A DNA stretch of 64,000 nt, taken from a phage. A model generated the notes under the pieces. The model worked only from the letters and a program-made list of their open reading frames with translations. It searched no databases and was not told the origin of the DNA. Positions 57,789 through 62,101 of this stretch are shown here, one piece after another. How positions within the stretch are numbered: the first letter of the stretch is position 1; every line of letters starts with the position of its first letter. The position numbers were made by a program, and so were the translations under genes. Location of the stretch: the NCBI GenBank assembly GCA_020381345.1, contig GCA_020381345.1_3636.1. The stretch is one strand, 5' to 3'.

Positions 57789-57819
57789 TACTTGAAAATT
57801 CCTGGCATATCAAGTATAA

Positions 57820-58300
57820 GGGGGATTTCTAAAATGGATTTCCTCCTTTTGATATTTCACCGGGCCGGATATTTTAAAATTCTTAGAAAATCAGAAAATG
57901 GATCGAAAACTAAAATGGATTTTTCAGAGTAGGCGCGACAAGCTGAATAACTCATCCTATCGTTTGCACCATATTCCAGGCCACCATTATAGATTTCCCA
58001 CACATGCTAACCTCTCTCTACTAGAACTTCCTCCACTTACCCTTGACCTTCTATGGTAACAATCTAACCGCTATCTTGAAGTTGCGGTGCAGCTTTCCAG
58101 GTACTCGATCTACTTTTCATTTCAGGGCTTGGATTTTCTGAAAATTTTTCTCGATAAATTTCTCAGTACTCGATCTGTTTTTCGTTTTCTGAATCGGATT
58201 TTCTGGAAATCGTTCCGGCTCTCAACCTGAAATTTTTGGGGACGAAATCGATTTTTCGTTTTCAGAAATGGATTTTTAAAATTTCTATATGGGAATATTT
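57820..58300. repeat. AT-rich non-coding region with recurring AAAATGGATTT / GGATTTTCTG / ATCGAAAAC motifs
   Basis: No credible ORF; motif recurs at ~57833, 57896, 57913, 58131, 58196, 58270. Confidence 0.5.
58098..58210. repeat. imperfect ~48-bp direct repeat, two copies, ~66-bp period
   Basis: CAGGTACTCGATCTACTTTTCATTTCAGGGCTTGGATTTTCTGAAAAT vs CAGTACTCGATCTGTTTTTCGTTTTCTGAATCGGATTTTCTGGAAAT. Confidence 0.55.
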
Positions 58301-58392
58301 TAGTGGATACTATTTTATAGTAAATTGTTACGGAGGGTAATTAGCGTGCTAATTAAATTTATTAAATGCGAGGAGTTCTCATTTAGAATTTT

Positions 58393-58650
58393 GAATGATA
58401 ATCATTCTCGTTTGCAGAATAACGGGCAGGCCCAGTGATTGTCTCCCGGCCCCTGTTGCCCCGGCTTGTTATTATAGTATCACACAGGACAAAGAAAGCA
58501 AGGATTTTTTGCATAAATTTTTAAATGATAATGATAACCGTTCTCATTTTATGCAGCGCCCATCCCCGGTGGTTGTCTCCCCCGTCACCGGTGCCTGCCG
58601 TCCTTTCGATAGGTATATTGTGCCACCTGGCGGGGCCGCTGTCAACACTT
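58393..58650. repeat. two paralogous GC-rich units in otherwise AT-rich spacer
   Basis: Both start AATGATAAT, then TTCTC, GCAG, TTGTCTCCC, GTGCC; second unit followed by direct repeat CCTGGCGGGG. Confidence 0.4.
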
Positions 58651-58742
58651 TTCAAAAAATTTTTCTAACCTGATGCGCTAACCGCTGCAACCTGGCGGGG
58701 GCGGCAGGTGGATTCTATCATAAAAATAATTTAAAATAGTCG

Positions 58743-58820: not shown

Positions 58821-59018
58821 ATGAACGCATACGGGATCAAAGTACGTCGCAACACTCGCCAGGTGGTCACCAATCAAGTGATTTGCCGGGTGGATGTAAC
58901 CATCAACAACGGGCAAGGCCTTTATAAATTTCGTCGCGGTCATAGCTATACCCTGCAACAGCTTAATCGTTGCGCCCTGACAAAAGGTCAGATCAACCAC
59001 TGGTTTAATAAAAAATAA
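58821..59018 (+). CDS. small early protein
   Basis: AAGAGGA RBS before ATG 58821; 65 aa; basic. Confidence 0.45.
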   Translation: MNAYGIKVRRNTRQVVTNQVICRVDVTINNGQGLYKFRRGHSYTLQQLNRCALTKGQINHWFNKK

Positions 59019-59020
59019 AT

Positions 59021-59049
59021 ATTGACATGTAGTCTGACACAAAATATAC
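59021..59049 (+). promoter_or_regulatory. sigma70-like promoter (early)
   Basis: TTGACA-17-TATACT. Confidence 0.55.
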
Positions 59050-59082
59050 TGAAATCACAAAAGACACTAAGAGGATAAAATC

Positions 59083-59481
59083 ATGAAAACCACAACCTTT
59101 AATTTTGATAATGCCAACTTTTCTTTTTCTGATGTCAAGAACTGCCGCCGTGATCGTGGATTTTACAAGGCTTATAATCTGGTGGGCCTGGACGATGACA
59201 ATAATTTGCACGAAGTAGCTGAGATCCGGTATTATGCCGCCGCCAGCGGGAACACTTACTACTGCGTTTTTTGGATACACGACAACAAGAACAATAAGTA
59301 CGGCTATACTGGCGGCAAGGCGAGCGGTCACGGTTATGATAAAGCTAACGCAGCACTTGAGAGCGCATTAAATGCTATGGGGATCACTGCCGACGGCTGG
59401 ATCTACGAAGAAGAGTTTTTGTCGGCACTTGCTGACCACCTAGGCTATAAAAAGCACATTGTAACATGCGCCCACGAATAA
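59083..59481 (+). CDS. early protein, hypothetical
   Basis: AAGAGGA RBS; 132 aa. Confidence 0.45.
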   Translation: MKTTTFNFDNANFSFSDVKNCRRDRGFYKAYNLVGLDDDNNLHEVAEIRYYAAASGNTYYCVFWIHDNKNNKYGYTGGKASGHGYDKANAALESALNAMGITADGWIYEEEFLSALADHLGYKKHIVTCAHE

Positions 59482-59487
59482 AAATCA

Positions 59488-59515
59488 TTGACACGCTGCA
59501 AAATTTAAGTAAACT
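59488..59515 (+). promoter_or_regulatory. sigma70-like promoter (early)
   Basis: TTGACA-16-TAAACT. Confidence 0.45.
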
Positions 59516-59563
59516 AGACACAAAAGGCGGGAATGTTTCCCGCCAGCACAAAGGAAAAAGATC

Positions 59564-59968
59564 ATGAATAAGAACGTACGCCGCATCATGAACGAGTTGG
59601 CAAACGATGAAAAAATTATTGACATGCATTTGATCAACATTTGCCGCCGTTGTGTAACATATAACAACCGCGCCGCAAAAGCGCGTGAGATGAACGCAAA
59701 AGGCACCTTAAAGCCATTCCAGGTGGTGGTAAAGGCCATTAAAGATGTAACTAATACGGCAAACCAGGTACAGGGGAACACCAACGAGAGTACCAACATT
59801 GATCCGGCTTACATCATGAAACGGATCCGGACCTGCAAGAACAAAGAGCAAGTGTATAATGTCATAGACTGGTTGGATTCTATGGGCGATGTGGTTTACA
59901 ATAGGTTTTCTGCAGCTATCGAGATCCAGCTTGACAGGTTGGACGGTAAAGTACTGAAAACTTACTAA
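59564..59968 (+). CDS. early protein, hypothetical
   Basis: AAAGGAAAAAG RBS; 134 aa. Confidence 0.45.
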   Translation: MNKNVRRIMNELANDEKIIDMHLINICRRCVTYNNRAAKAREMNAKGTLKPFQVVVKAIKDVTNTANQVQGNTNESTNIDPAYIMKRIRTCKNKEQVYNVIDWLDSMGDVVYNRFSAAIEIQLDRLDGKVLKTY

Positions 59969-59979
59969 GTTTATTTTTA

Positions 59980-60016
59980 GATGGCCTTGACTTCAGGGCC
60001 ATCAATAAAGTAAACT
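59980..60016 (+). promoter_or_regulatory. promoter cassette: 7-bp-stem hairpin enclosing -35 (TTGACT) then TAAACT
   Basis: GATGGCC TTGACTTCAG GGCCATC inverted repeat; near-identical copy at 60604-60640. Confidence 0.5.
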
Positions 60017-60051
60017 AATCTCAACTAAGCGAAAAAAAAGGGGGCTTTAAG

Positions 60052-60171
60052 ATGAGCACTACACGCCAATACACAAAGGTAACTATTATCGTTTGCGTTG
60101 TCGGTTACATCCTGGCGCAAATGTTAATGAGTAGCGCTAACAGTTTTGCAAAATTTTTCTTAAATTTTTAA
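60052..60171 (+). CDS. 39-aa hydrophobic peptide (below track threshold)
   Basis: GGGGG RBS 7 nt upstream; MSTTRQYTKVTIIVCVVGYILAQMLMSSANSFAKFFLNF; own promoter. Confidence 0.4.
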   Translation: MSTTRQYTKVTIIVCVVGYILAQMLMSSANSFAKFFLNF

Positions 60172-60172
60172 T

Positions 60173-60199
60173 TGACAAACTAACTTAGATCGATATACT
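60173..60199 (+). promoter_or_regulatory. sigma70-like promoter (early)
   Basis: TTGACA-15-TATACT. Confidence 0.4.
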
Positions 60200-60250
60200 T
60201 AAACACGTAAACGGGAAAACTTCCCAGAGCACACAAAAGGAGAAAACACC

Positions 60251-60592
60251 ATGACTACTATGACCGCCGCAGAAAAAGCTATGCAGATCGCCGCGCTGAA
60301 AAAACAGATCGCAGACCTTGAGAACAAGATCGATAACTTTGAAATCGACGAGGACAAGTACGACGAAAACTATGATGAATGGTTAGACGAGATCTACGGC
60401 GAAATTATGATCGGAAACATTTCTTTTCTTCCGTCGCGTATCCTCAAGGAGCTAGATCCTATCGCTTACCGCTGCGGATTTAGCGACTACATTGACAGCC
60501 TGGATATTGAGGACGATGAAGAATACCAGGAACTACAGACAGAGTTAGAAGAAGCAAAAGAAGAGCTTGCGGAGCTGGAAGAAAACGAGTAA
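60251..60592 (+). CDS. very acidic early protein, candidate DNA-mimic anti-restriction protein (Ocr-like by composition and context)
   Basis: AAAGGAGA RBS; 113 aa, Asp/Glu-dominated, ends EELAELEENE. Confidence 0.45.
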   Translation: MTTMTAAEKAMQIAALKKQIADLENKIDNFEIDEDKYDENYDEWLDEIYGEIMIGNISFLPSRILKELDPIAYRCGFSDYIDSLDIEDDEEYQELQTELEEAKEELAELEENE

Positions 60593-60603
60593 GATTATTT
60601 TTA

Positions 60604-60640
60604 GATAGCCTTGACTTCAGGGCCATCAATAAAGTAAACT
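60604..60640 (+). promoter_or_regulatory. promoter cassette copy (hairpin + TTGACT ... TAAACT)
   Basis: GATAGCCTTGACTTCAGGGCCATCAATAAAGTAAACT. Confidence 0.5.
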
Positions 60641-60681
60641 TTATACTGTTAACACTGAACTAATTCAGAGGAGTTAAAACC

Positions 60682-60927
60682 ATGGCAGCACTAATCACCA
60701 AATATTACGCCCCTACCAACACCAAAAGCGCCCGTATCATGGTAAAAGGCTTCGGACGTAAAAAGGTTTACACCTGGGATTATTCCCTAGACATGGAAGA
60801 CAACTACACCAACGCGATGACCGATTTTATTAACGAGCTGAATACGCGGATCTTAACAAATTATAAAATTACCGACATTGCTTATATAGGTGAAGGCGGG
60901 ATCTGTTTTGTAGGCATTGTGAAATAG
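60682..60927 (+). CDS. early protein, hypothetical
   Basis: AGAGGAG RBS; 81 aa. Confidence 0.4.
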   Translation: MAALITKYYAPTNTKSARIMVKGFGRKKVYTWDYSLDMEDNYTNAMTDFINELNTRILTNYKITDIAYIGEGGICFVGIVK

Positions 60928-61002
60928 TTATTTTTTCGGTGGTCCTTGCTGCAGGGCCATCTATAAAGATAATTTACTAACACCATGAAAGGAGAAAGTA
61001 AC

Positions 61003-61356
61003 ATGATCAGCGGGGCTAGTTTTATTATTGGCGCTATTGCTACGGCTTTAATTGTAAACAAGATCCAGGATAAAAAGGAAAGAGGAAGTACCGCCCTTGC
61101 AGAATATCCATTTTGGACATTCAACGATAACGAAGATTATATTGTAAAGTATAAAAATAAAGAAGGTGACCAAGTAACACCGCGACCGATCCCCGCTTAC
61201 AAGATGCAGGAAACACTATACCGCCTGGAGGCGGGGGGCGCAAAAATTGTAGACTTTTGGGGATACGATCACACAGATCAGGAAGCTATAAAGCGACGTA
61301 TCAGGGCTATTCAGGCCAATATTGAAGTTAGCAAGGGGGGAATATATGAAGATTAA
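61003..61356 (+). CDS. early membrane protein
   Basis: AAAGGAG RBS 8 nt before ATG 61003; N-terminal TM helix. Confidence 0.4.
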   Translation: MISGASFIIGAIATALIVNKIQDKKERGSTALAEYPFWTFNDNEDYIVKYKNKEGDQVTPRPIPAYKMQETLYRLEAGGAKIVDFWGYDHTDQEAIKRRIRAIQANIEVSKGGIYED

Positions 61357-61543
61357 TTTTGAGAAAATTGTAAAGCGATCTCATGATTCCGAAGAGCTGC
61401 CGGAACGCCGCCAGCGTAACAATAAACTGAATAAGCCAAAAAGATTTGGGAAGATCTGGCGGAATCATTATGATCGTAAATTGCCGGGCCTCCTTTTGGA
61501 ACGTGAACGGCAGGCGGAACGATACCGCCACAAAGGCAACTAA
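61346..61543 (+). CDS. small basic protein
   Basis: AAGGGGGG RBS; Arg/Lys-rich; terminator follows. Confidence 0.35.
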   Translation: MKINFEKIVKRSHDSEELPERRQRNNKLNKPKRFGKIWRNHYDRKLPGLLLERERQAERYRHKGN

Positions 61544-61766: not shown

Positions 61767-62027
61767 ATGCGTAAATTAAAAAATTTTGATAAAGTTGATG
61801 TTGTCCTGAATAATTTTTACTACTGCAATAACAAGGCCATTTGGTGGCGTGATAGTTCCACCGATAAGGTTAAGGCGCGCTTTCTCCAGGGGCACTGGCA
61901 AGGCCGCCCAGTGATTAAAATCATGGGGCAATTGGTAGCGTTTAAAAATTGCCGCCGTGTTGATGACGTTGAAGAGATTTTAAACATTTTGCGCCACAAT
62001 AATTTAAAAAATAGTGTTGACAAGTAA
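61767..62027 (+). CDS. early protein, hypothetical
   Basis: AGGAAGGAG RBS; 86 aa. Confidence 0.4.
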   Translation: MRKLKNFDKVDVVLNNFYYCNNKAIWWRDSSTDKVKARFLQGHWQGRPVIKIMGQLVAFKNCRRVDDVEEILNILRHNNLKNSVDK

Positions 62028-62044
62028 ATCTCGATAAGTATACT
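62017..62044 (+). promoter_or_regulatory. sigma70-like promoter (early)
   Basis: TTGACA-16-TATACT. Confidence 0.5.
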
Positions 62045-62101
62045 TAAACACACAGGCGGGAAAACTTCCAGCCACTAACAAAGAAAACAGGAGAAAATAT
62101 C

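Follow-up and report, generated by a model that had tools for sequence, protein, structure and literature searches.

The rV5 ORF193 homologue of a Vequintavirus phage, a small gene for a putative membrane peptide within a hairpin-repeat-bounded cassette

The early mRNA of phage T7 carries RNase III sites, such as R1.1, that are inter-cistronic hairpins located between small early genes transcribed by the host RNA polymerase. Among small membrane proteins, the E. coli inner-membrane regulators AcrZ, MgrB, SgrT, MgtS and CydX are 30-50 aa long, possess one transmembrane (TM) helix and contact a larger membrane protein, and small hydrophobic toxins of this size, the type I toxins of the TisB, Hok, Ldr and Ibs kind, are likewise well established. 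Cassettes with a promoter-early stem-loop (PeSL) have been described from the T4-type phages RB49/phi1, PST and nt-1 (Arbiol 2010, PMC2839356; Comeau 2014, PMC4122927). The closest described counterpart of the gene considered here is ORF193 of phage rV5, which appears in Table S3 of the 2013 study as a membrane protein of 39 aa and 4425 Da with one TM domain predicted by TMHMM/Phobius (PMC3606486).

Identity and setting of the gene

The window, a stretch of 64,000 nucleotides, comes from an rV5-like E. coli myophage of the genus Vequintavirus, and its positions 59000-61500 are 94-96% identical to Vequintavirus genomes. The gene and its immediate surroundings comprise the following features.

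59488-59515, + strand: strong promoter of sigma70 type for the upstream gene, the equivalent of rV5 P194 (TTGACA-16-TAAACT, 10/12)
59564-59968, + strand: upstream gene, the rV5 ORF194 homologue (134 aa, PHROG 13245)
59987-60016, + strand: candidate promoter hexamers TTGACT-18-TAAACT (-35 at 59987-59992, -10 at 60011-60016; 9/12 match)
60040-60044, + strand: Shine-Dalgarno sequence (SD) of the 39-aa ORF, GGGGG (AAGGGGG), with the 7-nt spacer CTTTAAG to the ATG
60052-60171, + strand: 39-aa ORF (rV5 ORF193 / PHROG 16391), ATG start, product MSTTRQYTKVTIIVCVVGYILAQMLMSSANSFAKFFLNF, a single-pass hydrophobic peptide
60172-60199, + strand: strong promoter of the downstream gene, the equivalent of rV5 P192 (TTGACA-16-TATACT, 11/12; annotated in rV5)
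60213-60225, + strand: small stem-loop GGGAAAACTTCCC within the downstream gene's leader (RNA fold)
60251-60592, + strand: downstream gene, the rV5 ORF192 homologue (113 aa, acidic, PHROG 9294)

The 39-aa ORF is the rV5 ORF193 (ABI79258.1), with FV3_00177, A512_78, bas50_0106 and others as orthologues, of which A512_78 bears the product label "putative membrane protein". The members of the family have products of 39 aa that are 85-100% identical, the same position, an SD and a single predicted TM helix; the allele in the window differs from that of rV5 in six residues (Y7H, V16I, V17I, S27G, S31D and N38D) and otherwise in nothing substantial. In an hmmscan search against PHROGs the peptide matches PHROG 16391 with an E-value of 3.8e-31, residues 1-39 aligning to profile positions 1-39 of 39. 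The gene lies between the ORF194 and ORF192 homologues on one strand in the annotation tables of A51.2, FV3, rV5, JES2013, DrSchubert, Mangalyan, WalterGehring, FFH2 and MiataMamis, within the ORF177-212 series of small sigma70-driven hypothetical genes.

The distribution of the family is narrow. Full-length translations with 76-100% identity are found by tblastn in about 113 Vequintavirus records, and the tblastn matches to the peptide are confined to this genus; weak ones in Av-05, a Bacteroides phage and a faecal contig, with E-values of 6-7, are taken as chance. An exhaustive phmmer (HMMER) search of 1.84 billion representative proteins returned one match, the peptide's own family, and ORF193 is therefore a genus-restricted ORFan.

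An earlier note on this DNA had placed the ORF at exactly 60052-60171, with a G-rich ribosome-binding site 7 nt upstream and a single-TM-like hydrophobic product, all of which agrees with the present analysis. Its description of the gene as unannotated does not hold, as GenBank has carried the gene since the rV5 genome, the 2013 table gives it as "membrane protein, 1 TMD" and it has a PHROG of its own; of the 46 listed Vequintavirus relatives with annotation, 30 include it and 16 leave it uncalled.

A hairpin-bearing repeat at the cassette boundaries

The intergenic region upstream of ORF193 contains a 51-nt element (repeat family D1) that recurs downstream.

59966-60016, + strand: copy 1, PeSL-like, containing the -35/-10 hexamers listed above
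60590-60640, + strand: copy 2, 96% identical to copy 1 and forming the right-hand boundary of a 624-bp module
60924-60974, + strand: copy 3, 71% identical, with the hairpin kept via compensatory changes and no TTGAC -35

These are the only three copies found by nhmmer in 64 kb, and they occupy three consecutive intergenic regions. The stop codon TAA of the upstream gene (59966-59968) lies in the AT-rich arm TAAGTTTATTTTTA of copy 1, and the sequence at 59968-60016 is predicted to form a two-tier hairpin with a 10-bp AU-rich outer stem and a 10-bp GC-rich inner stem separated by a 2/3-nt internal loop. The predicted fold of copy 1 has an energy of -25 kcal/mol (z -6.4), and the three copies give -25, -16.6 and -20.4 kcal/mol with z-scores of -3.5 to -6.4. 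In an alignment of 22 sequences 96.8% of the cells are paired and four pairs show compensatory changes. As an intrinsic terminator the hairpin was rejected, as no U-tract follows the stem on either strand.

The element resembles the PeSLs in several respects. First, its left end is the stop codon of the preceding gene, set in an AT-rich tract, and on the right it runs up to a small ORFan's SD and ATG. Next, a stem-loop with G-T pairs among its base pairs lies between or across candidate -35/-10 boxes of sigma70 type. Finally, the ORFans that its copies enclose are non-essential and are deleted when two copies recombine. In contrast to the PeSLs, the host genome is a Vequintavirus and not a T4-type phage, only three copies of this sequence type exist in 64 kb, the boxes are a weak match where those of the PeSLs are near-consensus (9/12 with an 18-nt spacer, one copy without a -35 and a 20-nt spacer in the relative L004), and a long two-tier AU/GC helix takes the place of the short polyG/polyC stem. 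Promoter and terminator/attenuator activity and mini-circle formation also characterise PeSLs, and the element here would be a candidate for them.

The role of the repeats as boundaries is seen in natural variants. In ECP32, magaca and phiWec189 the 624-bp ORF193+ORF192 module between copies 1 and 2 is exactly missing, and ORF194 is joined directly to ORF191 across one hybrid repeat copy, while rV5_ev146 is devoid of ORF194 and of codons 1-6 of ORF193. ORF193 is lost in at least four relatives with otherwise intact genomes, and these variants demonstrate that it is dispensable. In the comparison with rV5, the ORF194 protein is identical and its gene has a dS of 0.02 against 0.46 for ORF193, which indicates a mosaic junction at copy 1. 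The hairpin repeats coincide with both the deletion end-points and the mosaic junction, and recombination between two 51-nt hairpin copies would delete the ORF193+ORF192 cassette in the manner of the T4-type PeSL cassettes. A second cassette type, consisting of promoter, stem-loop and SD, is represented by repeat D6, which pairs 60172-60224 with 62017-62069. Upstream of the distant ORF192 homologues at the loci L005-L011 (47-61% identity) there is no related small hydrophobic ORF, so any link between the peptide and the ORF192 family is confined to Vequintavirus. Farther upstream in the window, scans of 57800-58740 with TRF and for tRNA genes and Rfam families were negative.

As for transcription, the earlier note had assigned ORF193 a dedicated TTGACT...TAAACT promoter. 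The hexamers are indeed present, but "dedicated" is not established: the 9/12 match lies inside the hairpin, copy 3 has no -35, L004 retains the ORF with a 20-nt spacing of the hexamers, and the rV5 authors predicted the promoters P192, P194 and P195 and no P193 (PMC3606486). The hexamers are conserved in copies 1 and 2. A promoter scan of 6 kb returned 25 sites, with 12.1 +/- 3.5 expected from shuffles, and the TTGACT-18-TAAACT match by itself is at chance level. A promoter of its own for ORF193 seems to us somewhat doubtful. P194, by comparison, is listed in Table S4 of the rV5 study (PMC3606486), and the scan found no plus-strand terminator-like site between it and position 60171, so that co-transcription with ORF194 would suffice. 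Read-through from P194 would be the likeliest route of ORF193 expression, to which a weak hairpin-embedded promoter may add.

An alternative, which concerns transcription only, is that the hairpin is an RNA element of the polycistronic P194 transcript that serves in RNase III-type processing, in 3′ stabilisation or in attenuation, and that ORF193 has no promoter of its own; we place this reading just short of an even chance. It would account for the roughly 20-bp coaxial helix with its small internal loop, for the many G.U/U.G pairs on the plus strand, positions at which the complementary strand or DNA would be mismatched, and for the retention of the helix by compensatory changes where the -35 (copy 3) or the spacing (L004) is lost, and it also agrees with the lack of a P193 in the predictions of the rV5 authors. 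The T7 early-mRNA sites are likewise inter-cistronic, span about two helical turns with a small internal loop and require about 20 bp of double-stranded RNA. The hairpin is predicted to have this structure between transcribed genes and is a candidate for cleavage; it has no sequence relationship to the T7 sites and also carries the promoter-like hexamers. In nearly all phages, moreover, copies 1 and 2 retain the TTGAC, a -10-like hexamer and the AT-rich tract upstream, and promoter activity has been demonstrated in RB49/phi1 for PeSLs whose stem-loop lies in the promoter (PMC2839356). The two roles can coexist.

ORF193 would be expressed by host-sigma70 transcription soon after infection, and early expression appears probable. 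The literature on transcriptomics, ribosome profiling and functional screens of rV5-like phages yielded nothing relevant, and no transcript, ribosome-profiling or proteomic evidence for ORF193 in any rV5-like phage was found there, so we infer both its translation and the timing and route of its transcription.

The predicted membrane peptide

The hydrophobic core of the peptide comprises residues 10-26 (nucleotides 60079-60129) with a mean Kyte-Doolittle hydropathy of 2.36 over the 17 residues, a value reached by just 2.4% of the 205 ATG-initiated ORFs of 30-60 aa in the window. AlphaFold2 models a single helix over residues 3-37 (pLDDT 86), in agreement with the one TM domain of the rV5 table. 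The peptide is likely to be membrane-inserted, a judgement in which we have good confidence. It would reside in the host inner membrane, its N-terminus with R5 and K9 facing the cytoplasm and its conserved tail of 13 residues (SSANSFAKFFLNF) lying on the outer side, this N-in topology being the most likely because of the positive-inside rule.

Once inserted, the peptide may act by helix-helix packing in the membrane via a conserved small-residue stripe, T11-C15-G18-A22-A29-A33, against a protein of the host inner membrane or against another copy of itself. A host envelope function might thereby be tuned, to the phage's advantage in certain hosts or conditions only. The AcrZ, MgrB, SgrT, MgtS and CydX group provides a parallel, with the same size, one TM helix and an expected helix-helix mode of action, although the peptide has no sequence similarity to them and is phage-encoded, so the resemblance is one of kind only. 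The variable residues centre at 225 degrees and the small-residue face at 0-60 degrees, a bias that is not significant (permutation p 0.22). The proposal that the peptide is a helix-packing modulator is a tentative one, and we would sooner expect it to be wrong than right.

Neither homology nor gene context was found to tie the peptide to any partner or pathway. Pfam gave no families at E-values up to 1, and NCBIfam and PADLOC none at up to 10 with three variants of the peptide; Rfam gave one weak match outside the ORF, to the DUF2693 RNA at 59483-59549 (E 0.82, far below the gathering score). A PDB sequence search produced only chance-level matches, to a thiamine transporter's TM helix (E 1.4-3.5). 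A holin or antiholin was rejected, as the gene lies among ORF177-212, away from the lysis cassette, and the rV5 lysin gp89 is encoded elsewhere in the genome. The roles put forward earlier, namely toxin, exclusion factor or transporter inhibitor, are generic.

Of the specific functions considered, a membrane-damaging host shut-off peptide, which would oligomerise in the inner membrane, dissipate the proton-motive force and so aid early takeover, in the way of the type I toxins or of other lethal small peptides of phages, is an unlikely one. The size, the single hydrophobic helix and the early-type sigma70 context are compatible with it, as is a stripe of polar and small residues (T11, C15, G18/Y19, A22/Q23, S27 and N30), and like the type I toxins (Hok/Gef, Ldr, TisB, Ibs and ShoB) the peptide is short and hydrophobic, with a basic N-terminal flank to its single helix. 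However, it matches no HMM, including those of the type I toxin families in the Pfam, NCBIfam and PADLOC searches at E-values up to 1-10, the absence of an Rfam match in the ORF gives no sign of sRNA pairing, and no minus-strand promoter-like site that could drive an antisense antitoxin RNA occurs in 59950-60260. The helix and its flanks also contain few charged residues compared with pore-forming toxins, and loss of the gene in at least four otherwise intact relatives means that it does not serve a required takeover function.

Less likely again is a superinfection-exclusion or defence-related factor that alters an inner-membrane component of DNA entry, or blocks or triggers a membrane-associated defence, as the unrelated T4 proteins Imm and Sp would exemplify. 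An accessory, variably present and genus-restricted gene in a hyperplastic ORFan region is typical of conflict-related phage genes (general argument in PMC2839356). The peptide nevertheless shows no sequence relationship to Imm, Sp or any PHROG of known function, its sole PHROG match being 16391, PADLOC does not recognise it, and the gene context points to nothing exclusion-specific.

Coding constraint and meaning of the locus

The frame, start and stop of ORF193 are kept in all 15 of the other intact relatives' loci examined, while in a further locus (L013) the start is gone by deletion. Across the 15 relatives the ORF is free of indels except for one codon at the N-terminus in L004, and both flanking spacers have indels. 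L004, the most divergent relative at 78% nucleotide identity, still has an intact 38-aa ORF with conservative replacements. The dN/dS is 0.12-0.26 in the ORF193 frame; in the +1 frame it rises to 0.44-0.82, and in the +2 frame it either exceeds 1 or is undefined. The frame-specific synonymous excess has Fisher p-values of 0.0006-0.008. The value of 0.17 relative to rV5 is above that of the neighbouring genes, which show zero non-synonymous changes; the coding constraint appears weak, measured as it is on 39 codons of closely related sequences. The SD is the canonical GGAGG (AAGGAGG) in most relatives, the G/A change retaining the pairing with the anti-SD, and the ribosome-binding site is annotated in phage Mangalyan; the initiation region is predicted to be weakly structured (-6.2 kcal/mol, z -0.9). 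Finally, ORF193 is separated from its neighbours by 83 and 79 nt, and the other local gaps are 57-89 nt, whereas a gap of 282 nt would result if it were left out, so the gene spacing fits the local pattern only with ORF193 counted.

This evidence makes us highly confident that ORF193 is a real protein-coding gene, as the earlier note had supposed. It would be improbable for it to be a chance open frame conserved through DNA- or RNA-level roles, such as the UP element of P192 or transcript structure. Chance ORFs of this length are common, as the 205 in the window demonstrate, the 3′ end lies where a strong promoter would have its UP element, the gene is dispensable, and of the 46 listed relatives with annotation 16 leave it out. 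Opposed to these points are the frame-specific nature of the synonymous excess, the absence of frameshifting indels next to two spacers that have them, the conserved SD at the right distance with its compensated G/A change, the intact ORF of L004, and the lack of any Rfam match in ORF193.

The C-terminal end deserves separate treatment. P192 begins right after the stop codon of ORF193, which puts the AT-rich last codons at the UP-element position. These codons (GCAAAATTTTTCTTA), directly upstream of the P192 -35, are invariant in all aligned sequences, and conservation of the tail may therefore in part reflect constraint at the DNA level. The aromatic tail ends in A-K-F-F-L-N/D-F-COOH, so that its last residue is Phe and the residues 3, 5 and 7 counted from the C-terminus are hydrophobic; in this it resembles the outer-membrane-protein C-terminal signature read by the PDZ domains of DegS/DegP and by the BAM complex. 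That the peptide is a new kind of early phage envelope micro-effector, whose periplasmic tail triggers or jams envelope-stress signalling or outer-membrane protein assembly, is highly improbable, since the idea draws on this short resemblance and the P192 UP-element overlap may equally explain the conservation.

The reading we prefer for the locus as a whole is that of a Vequintavirus ORF193 homologue, a genus-restricted accessory gene carried in a repeat-bounded cassette of the plastic small-gene region, taken together with the proposed membrane insertion, early P194-driven expression and helix-packing action of its one-helix product; for this combination we see somewhat better than an even chance.

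As a gene call the result is of small importance, as ORF193 has long been in GenBank and was labelled a membrane protein in 2013. It does serve as an annotation check, about a third (16/46) of the annotated rV5-like genomes listed missing the gene despite its coding constraint, and it adds one more membrane micro-protein to a genus of therapeutic phages. The natural deletion variants ECP32, magaca, phiWec189 and rV5_ev146 are ready material for functional tests. The more interesting by-product concerns the repeats: in the small-gene region of rV5-like phages, hairpin-bearing repeats between genes appear to serve as linkers through which ORFan cassettes recombine, a behaviour so far described for the PeSLs of T4-type phages.

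Identity and coding status of ORF193

The 39-aa ORF and the G-rich ribosome-binding site described in the earlier note are present as claimed, and the translation is exactly the 39 residues quoted there.

60052-60171, + strand: 39-aa ORF, homologue of ORF193 of phage rV5
60040-60044, + strand: Shine-Dalgarno (SD) sequence GGGGG, 7 nt 5′ of the ATG

About 120 phage records match the region 59000-61500, with identities of 80-96% (94-96% for the best). Nearly all of them are rV5-like myophages of E. coli in the genus Vequintavirus, to which the unverified entries labelled "Campylobacter phage" also belong. The gene, which had been considered unannotated, is not new and is already catalogued: it is rV5 ORF193 (ABI79258.1), listed by Kropinski et al. 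2013 (Table S3) as a "membrane protein" of 39 aa, 4425 Da and pI 8.2 with one TMD (PMC3606486), an identical protein is annotated in FV3 as FV3_00177, A51.2 and HMD-6 label it "putative membrane protein", and it matches PHROG 16391. Among the tblastn matches listed, 30 of the 46 annotated Vequintavirus records call the gene and 16 miss it, so its lack of annotation reflects inconsistent gene callers and is no discovery.

The length of the ORF is by itself no proof of a gene, and the proof is supplied by comparative evidence. A full-length translation, 76-100% identical, is found by tblastn in about 113 Vequintavirus records. In an alignment of 17 loci picked to cover the identity range, among them an IMG/VR contig (L004) located via the neighbouring gene and thus independently of the ORF, all loci bar one deletion variant have an intact start, stop and frame; the sole length change is one N-terminal codon in L004, and several indels are present in each of the two flanking spacers. 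By the Nei-Gojobori method, dN/dS ranges over 0.12-0.26 when codons are read in the ORF frame; the +1 frame gives 0.44-0.82, and the +2 frame values that are >1 or undefined. The synonymous excess is significant (Fisher p 0.0006-0.008), and the replacements are conservative (V/I, S/G, Y/H, N/D). The SD reads AAGGAGG in most relatives and AAGGGGG in the window, a change that keeps the anti-SD pairing, and it is annotated as an RBS in phage Mangalyan. The gaps to the neighbours are 83 and 79 nt, in line with other local gaps of 57-89 nt, and without ORF193 the ORF194-ORF192 gap would be 282 nt. Rfam holds no family matching ORF193 or either flanking spacer. From frame conservation, dN/dS, SD and gene spacing we conclude that ORF193 is in all probability a genuine protein-coding gene, as proposed earlier, and that purifying selection on it is moderate, weaker than on its neighbours, where no non-synonymous change relative to rV5 is found.

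The family is narrow. A single protein, a same-family 39-mer of 85% identity, came out of an exhaustive phmmer search over 1.84 billion cluster representatives, searches of Pfam, NCBIfam, PADLOC and PDB with the peptide gave nothing meaningful, and no comparable peptide gene lies beside distant ORF192 homologues in other viral contigs; ORF193 is a genus-restricted ORFan. The acidic ORF192 homologue (60251-60592) is much more widespread, since its core motif (I/V)SFxPSxILKELDPIAY is common to small proteins on diverse IMG/VR viral contigs (L005-L011, 47-61% identity).

ORF193 belongs to a long series of short hypothetical genes that all lie on one strand (rV5 ORF177-212); in front of each gene there are sigma70-type promoters or repeated intergenic cassettes of other kinds. 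In this neighbourhood, the ORF190 homologue was placed mechanically at 60985-61356, but it really begins at 61003, as indicated by a repeated SD-ATG motif at 60988-61006 (AAAGGAGAAAGTAACATGA) and by relatives in which it is annotated with 354 nt. Further upstream, 57800-58740 comprises approximately 900 nt devoid of a convincing ORF, with loosely periodic repeats of about 65 nt carrying GGATTTT and TTTTCNGAAA motifs and with TGC(C/A)ACCTGGCGGGG present twice; Rfam, tRNA and TRF scans of it gave no matches.

The predicted membrane helix and its possible role

The single-TM-like character of the peptide is borne out by its core VTIIVCVVGYILAQMLM (residues 10-26, 17 residues), with a mean Kyte-Doolittle value of 2.36 (the window has 205 ATG-ORFs of 30-60 aa, and just 2.4% of these attain it), by a single-sequence AlphaFold2 model with one unbroken helix (residues 3-37, mean pLDDT 86), and by the TMD of the rV5 table. 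With R5 and K9 at the N-terminus and a net neutral to acidic C-terminal tail, the peptide should, according to the positive-inside rule, be oriented N-in, C-out in the inner membrane, which would place about 13 residues outside. The conserved small residues T11, C15, G18, A22, A29 and A33 line one face of the modelled helix, a pattern suggestive of helix-helix packing, although variable residues show no significant tendency to avoid this face (p 0.22). The ...AKFFL tail is invariant at the nucleotide level as well, and its conservation may partly be a DNA constraint beside the protein constraint, as it lies at the would-be UP-element site of P192. The final codons (GCAAAATTTTTCTTAAATTTT, 60130-60171) coincide with the expected UP-element site of the strong P192 (60172-60199), and the stretch GCAAAATTTTTCTTA is invariant across all aligned sequences.

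The reading we favour, tentatively, is that the peptide would be a small inner-membrane modulator whose helix packs against itself or against a membrane protein of the host, made early and useful in some hosts only. The early timing is suggested by the sigma70 promoters and the gene neighbourhood; a literature search found no transcriptome for the genus Vequintavirus. Of the main rival readings, a depolarising toxin seems unlikely, and an exclusion or defence-related factor somewhat more improbable still.

A repeated hairpin element and the putative promoter of ORF193

The promoter-like hexamers in front of ORF193 form part of a 51-nt element; the 64-kb window has three copies of it, one in each of three consecutive spacers.

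59966-60016: hairpin element, copy 1
60590-60640: hairpin element, copy 2
60924-60974: hairpin element, copy 3
59987-60016, + strand: TTGACT-18-TAAACT hexamers, 9/12 match, long spacer
59488-59515, + strand: strong equivalent of the rV5 promoter P194, 10/12 match

The 5′ end of each copy lies at or slightly upstream of the stop codon of the preceding gene, and each forms a two-tier hairpin (-25, -16.6 and -20.4 kcal/mol; z -3.5 to -6.4), in which an AU-rich outer stem and a GC-rich inner stem, both of 10 bp, are separated by a small internal loop. The -35 is within the inner stem and loop, and the 3′ arm of the outer stem forms the -10. When 22 distinct copies were compared, drawn from the window and from 13 related phage loci, 96.8% of the cells were paired versus 35-57% with slid partners. 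Compensatory double changes occur at four pairs of the outer stem, and G.U pairs, functional on the + strand only, are found at many positions. The layout is exactly that of the promoter-early stem-loop (PeSL) cassettes of T4-type phages, in which the stem-loops lie between or over the promoter boxes and promoter activity has been experimentally shown (PMC2839356). In the literature, we found PeSLs described only for T4-like phages and none for rV5-like phages. A second repeated cassette type (59488-59563, 60172-60250 and 62017-62100), with a near-consensus TTGACA-16/17-TATACT/TAAACT followed by a short GC stem-loop (GGCGGGAA..TTCCCGCC or GGGAA..TTCCC) and an SD, alternates with the hairpin element along the gene row.

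The promoter assigned to ORF193 in the earlier note is present as a sequence, but its description as dedicated is doubtful. Promoter-like sites are abundant in the 6-kb stretch (25, versus 12.1 ± 3.5 expected by chance), eight of them match at least 10/12, including the annotated P195, P194 and P192 equivalents, and the rV5 authors predicted these three with no P193 (PMC3606486). Copy 3 carries CCTGGT or CCTTGC in place of TTGAC with the hairpin kept, and in L004 insertions lengthen the spacer to 20 nt with ORF and SD still present, so the conserved feature is the hairpin and not the hexamers. A scan from P194 to ORF193 found no +-strand terminator-like site, hence read-through can express ORF193. 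A functional promoter of its own is conceivable, with the balance slightly against it.

Natural deletions and the hairpin repeats

In three phages, vB_EcoM-ECP32, magaca and phiWec189, the match to the 59564-60592 query stops at 60016, where copy 1 ends. In annotation and junction alignment (against 59966-60640), ORF194 is followed by one hybrid element copy and directly by the ORF191 leader.

L024 (ECP32), 1580-1703: deletion junction
L025 (magaca), 1571-1694: deletion junction
L026 (phiWec189), 1580-1703: deletion junction

The absent 624 bp bear ORF193 and ORF192 and equal the exact copy 1-copy 2 distance; the difference is recombination between the repeats, as a deletion (or insertion). 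ORF194 diverges by up to 12% among the three phages, which implies that the deletion allele arose more than once or moved by recombination. The dS relative to rV5 is 0.02 in the nearly identical ORF194 (59564-59968) versus 0.46 in ORF193 and 0.36 in ORF191 (60682-60927), which points to a mosaic recombination junction at the hairpin element.

A different deletion is found in rV5_ev146 (L013 535-720 versus 59526-60075), spanning the interval between the ORF194 leader and ORF193 codon 7 and removing the ORF194 homologue and the first six ORF193 codons. The two ends are joined at a short sequence that they share, CGCCAGCACA...AAAGG, which occurs both in the leader of ORF194 and within codons 5-10 of ORF193. 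Downstream of P194, the residual frame lacks a start; the 60-aa fusion ORF in the record's annotation begins upstream of this promoter and is improbable.

These natural deletions indicate that ORF193 is non-essential for a plaque-forming phage; it is an SD-preceded, accessory coding peptide with a single hydrophobic helix, conserved within one genus. The repeat-bounded ORF193-ORF192 module matches the PeSL-mediated modular shuffling of T4-type phages, and the analysis is most useful for the PeSL-like hairpin repeats and the natural deletion variants that it brought to light.
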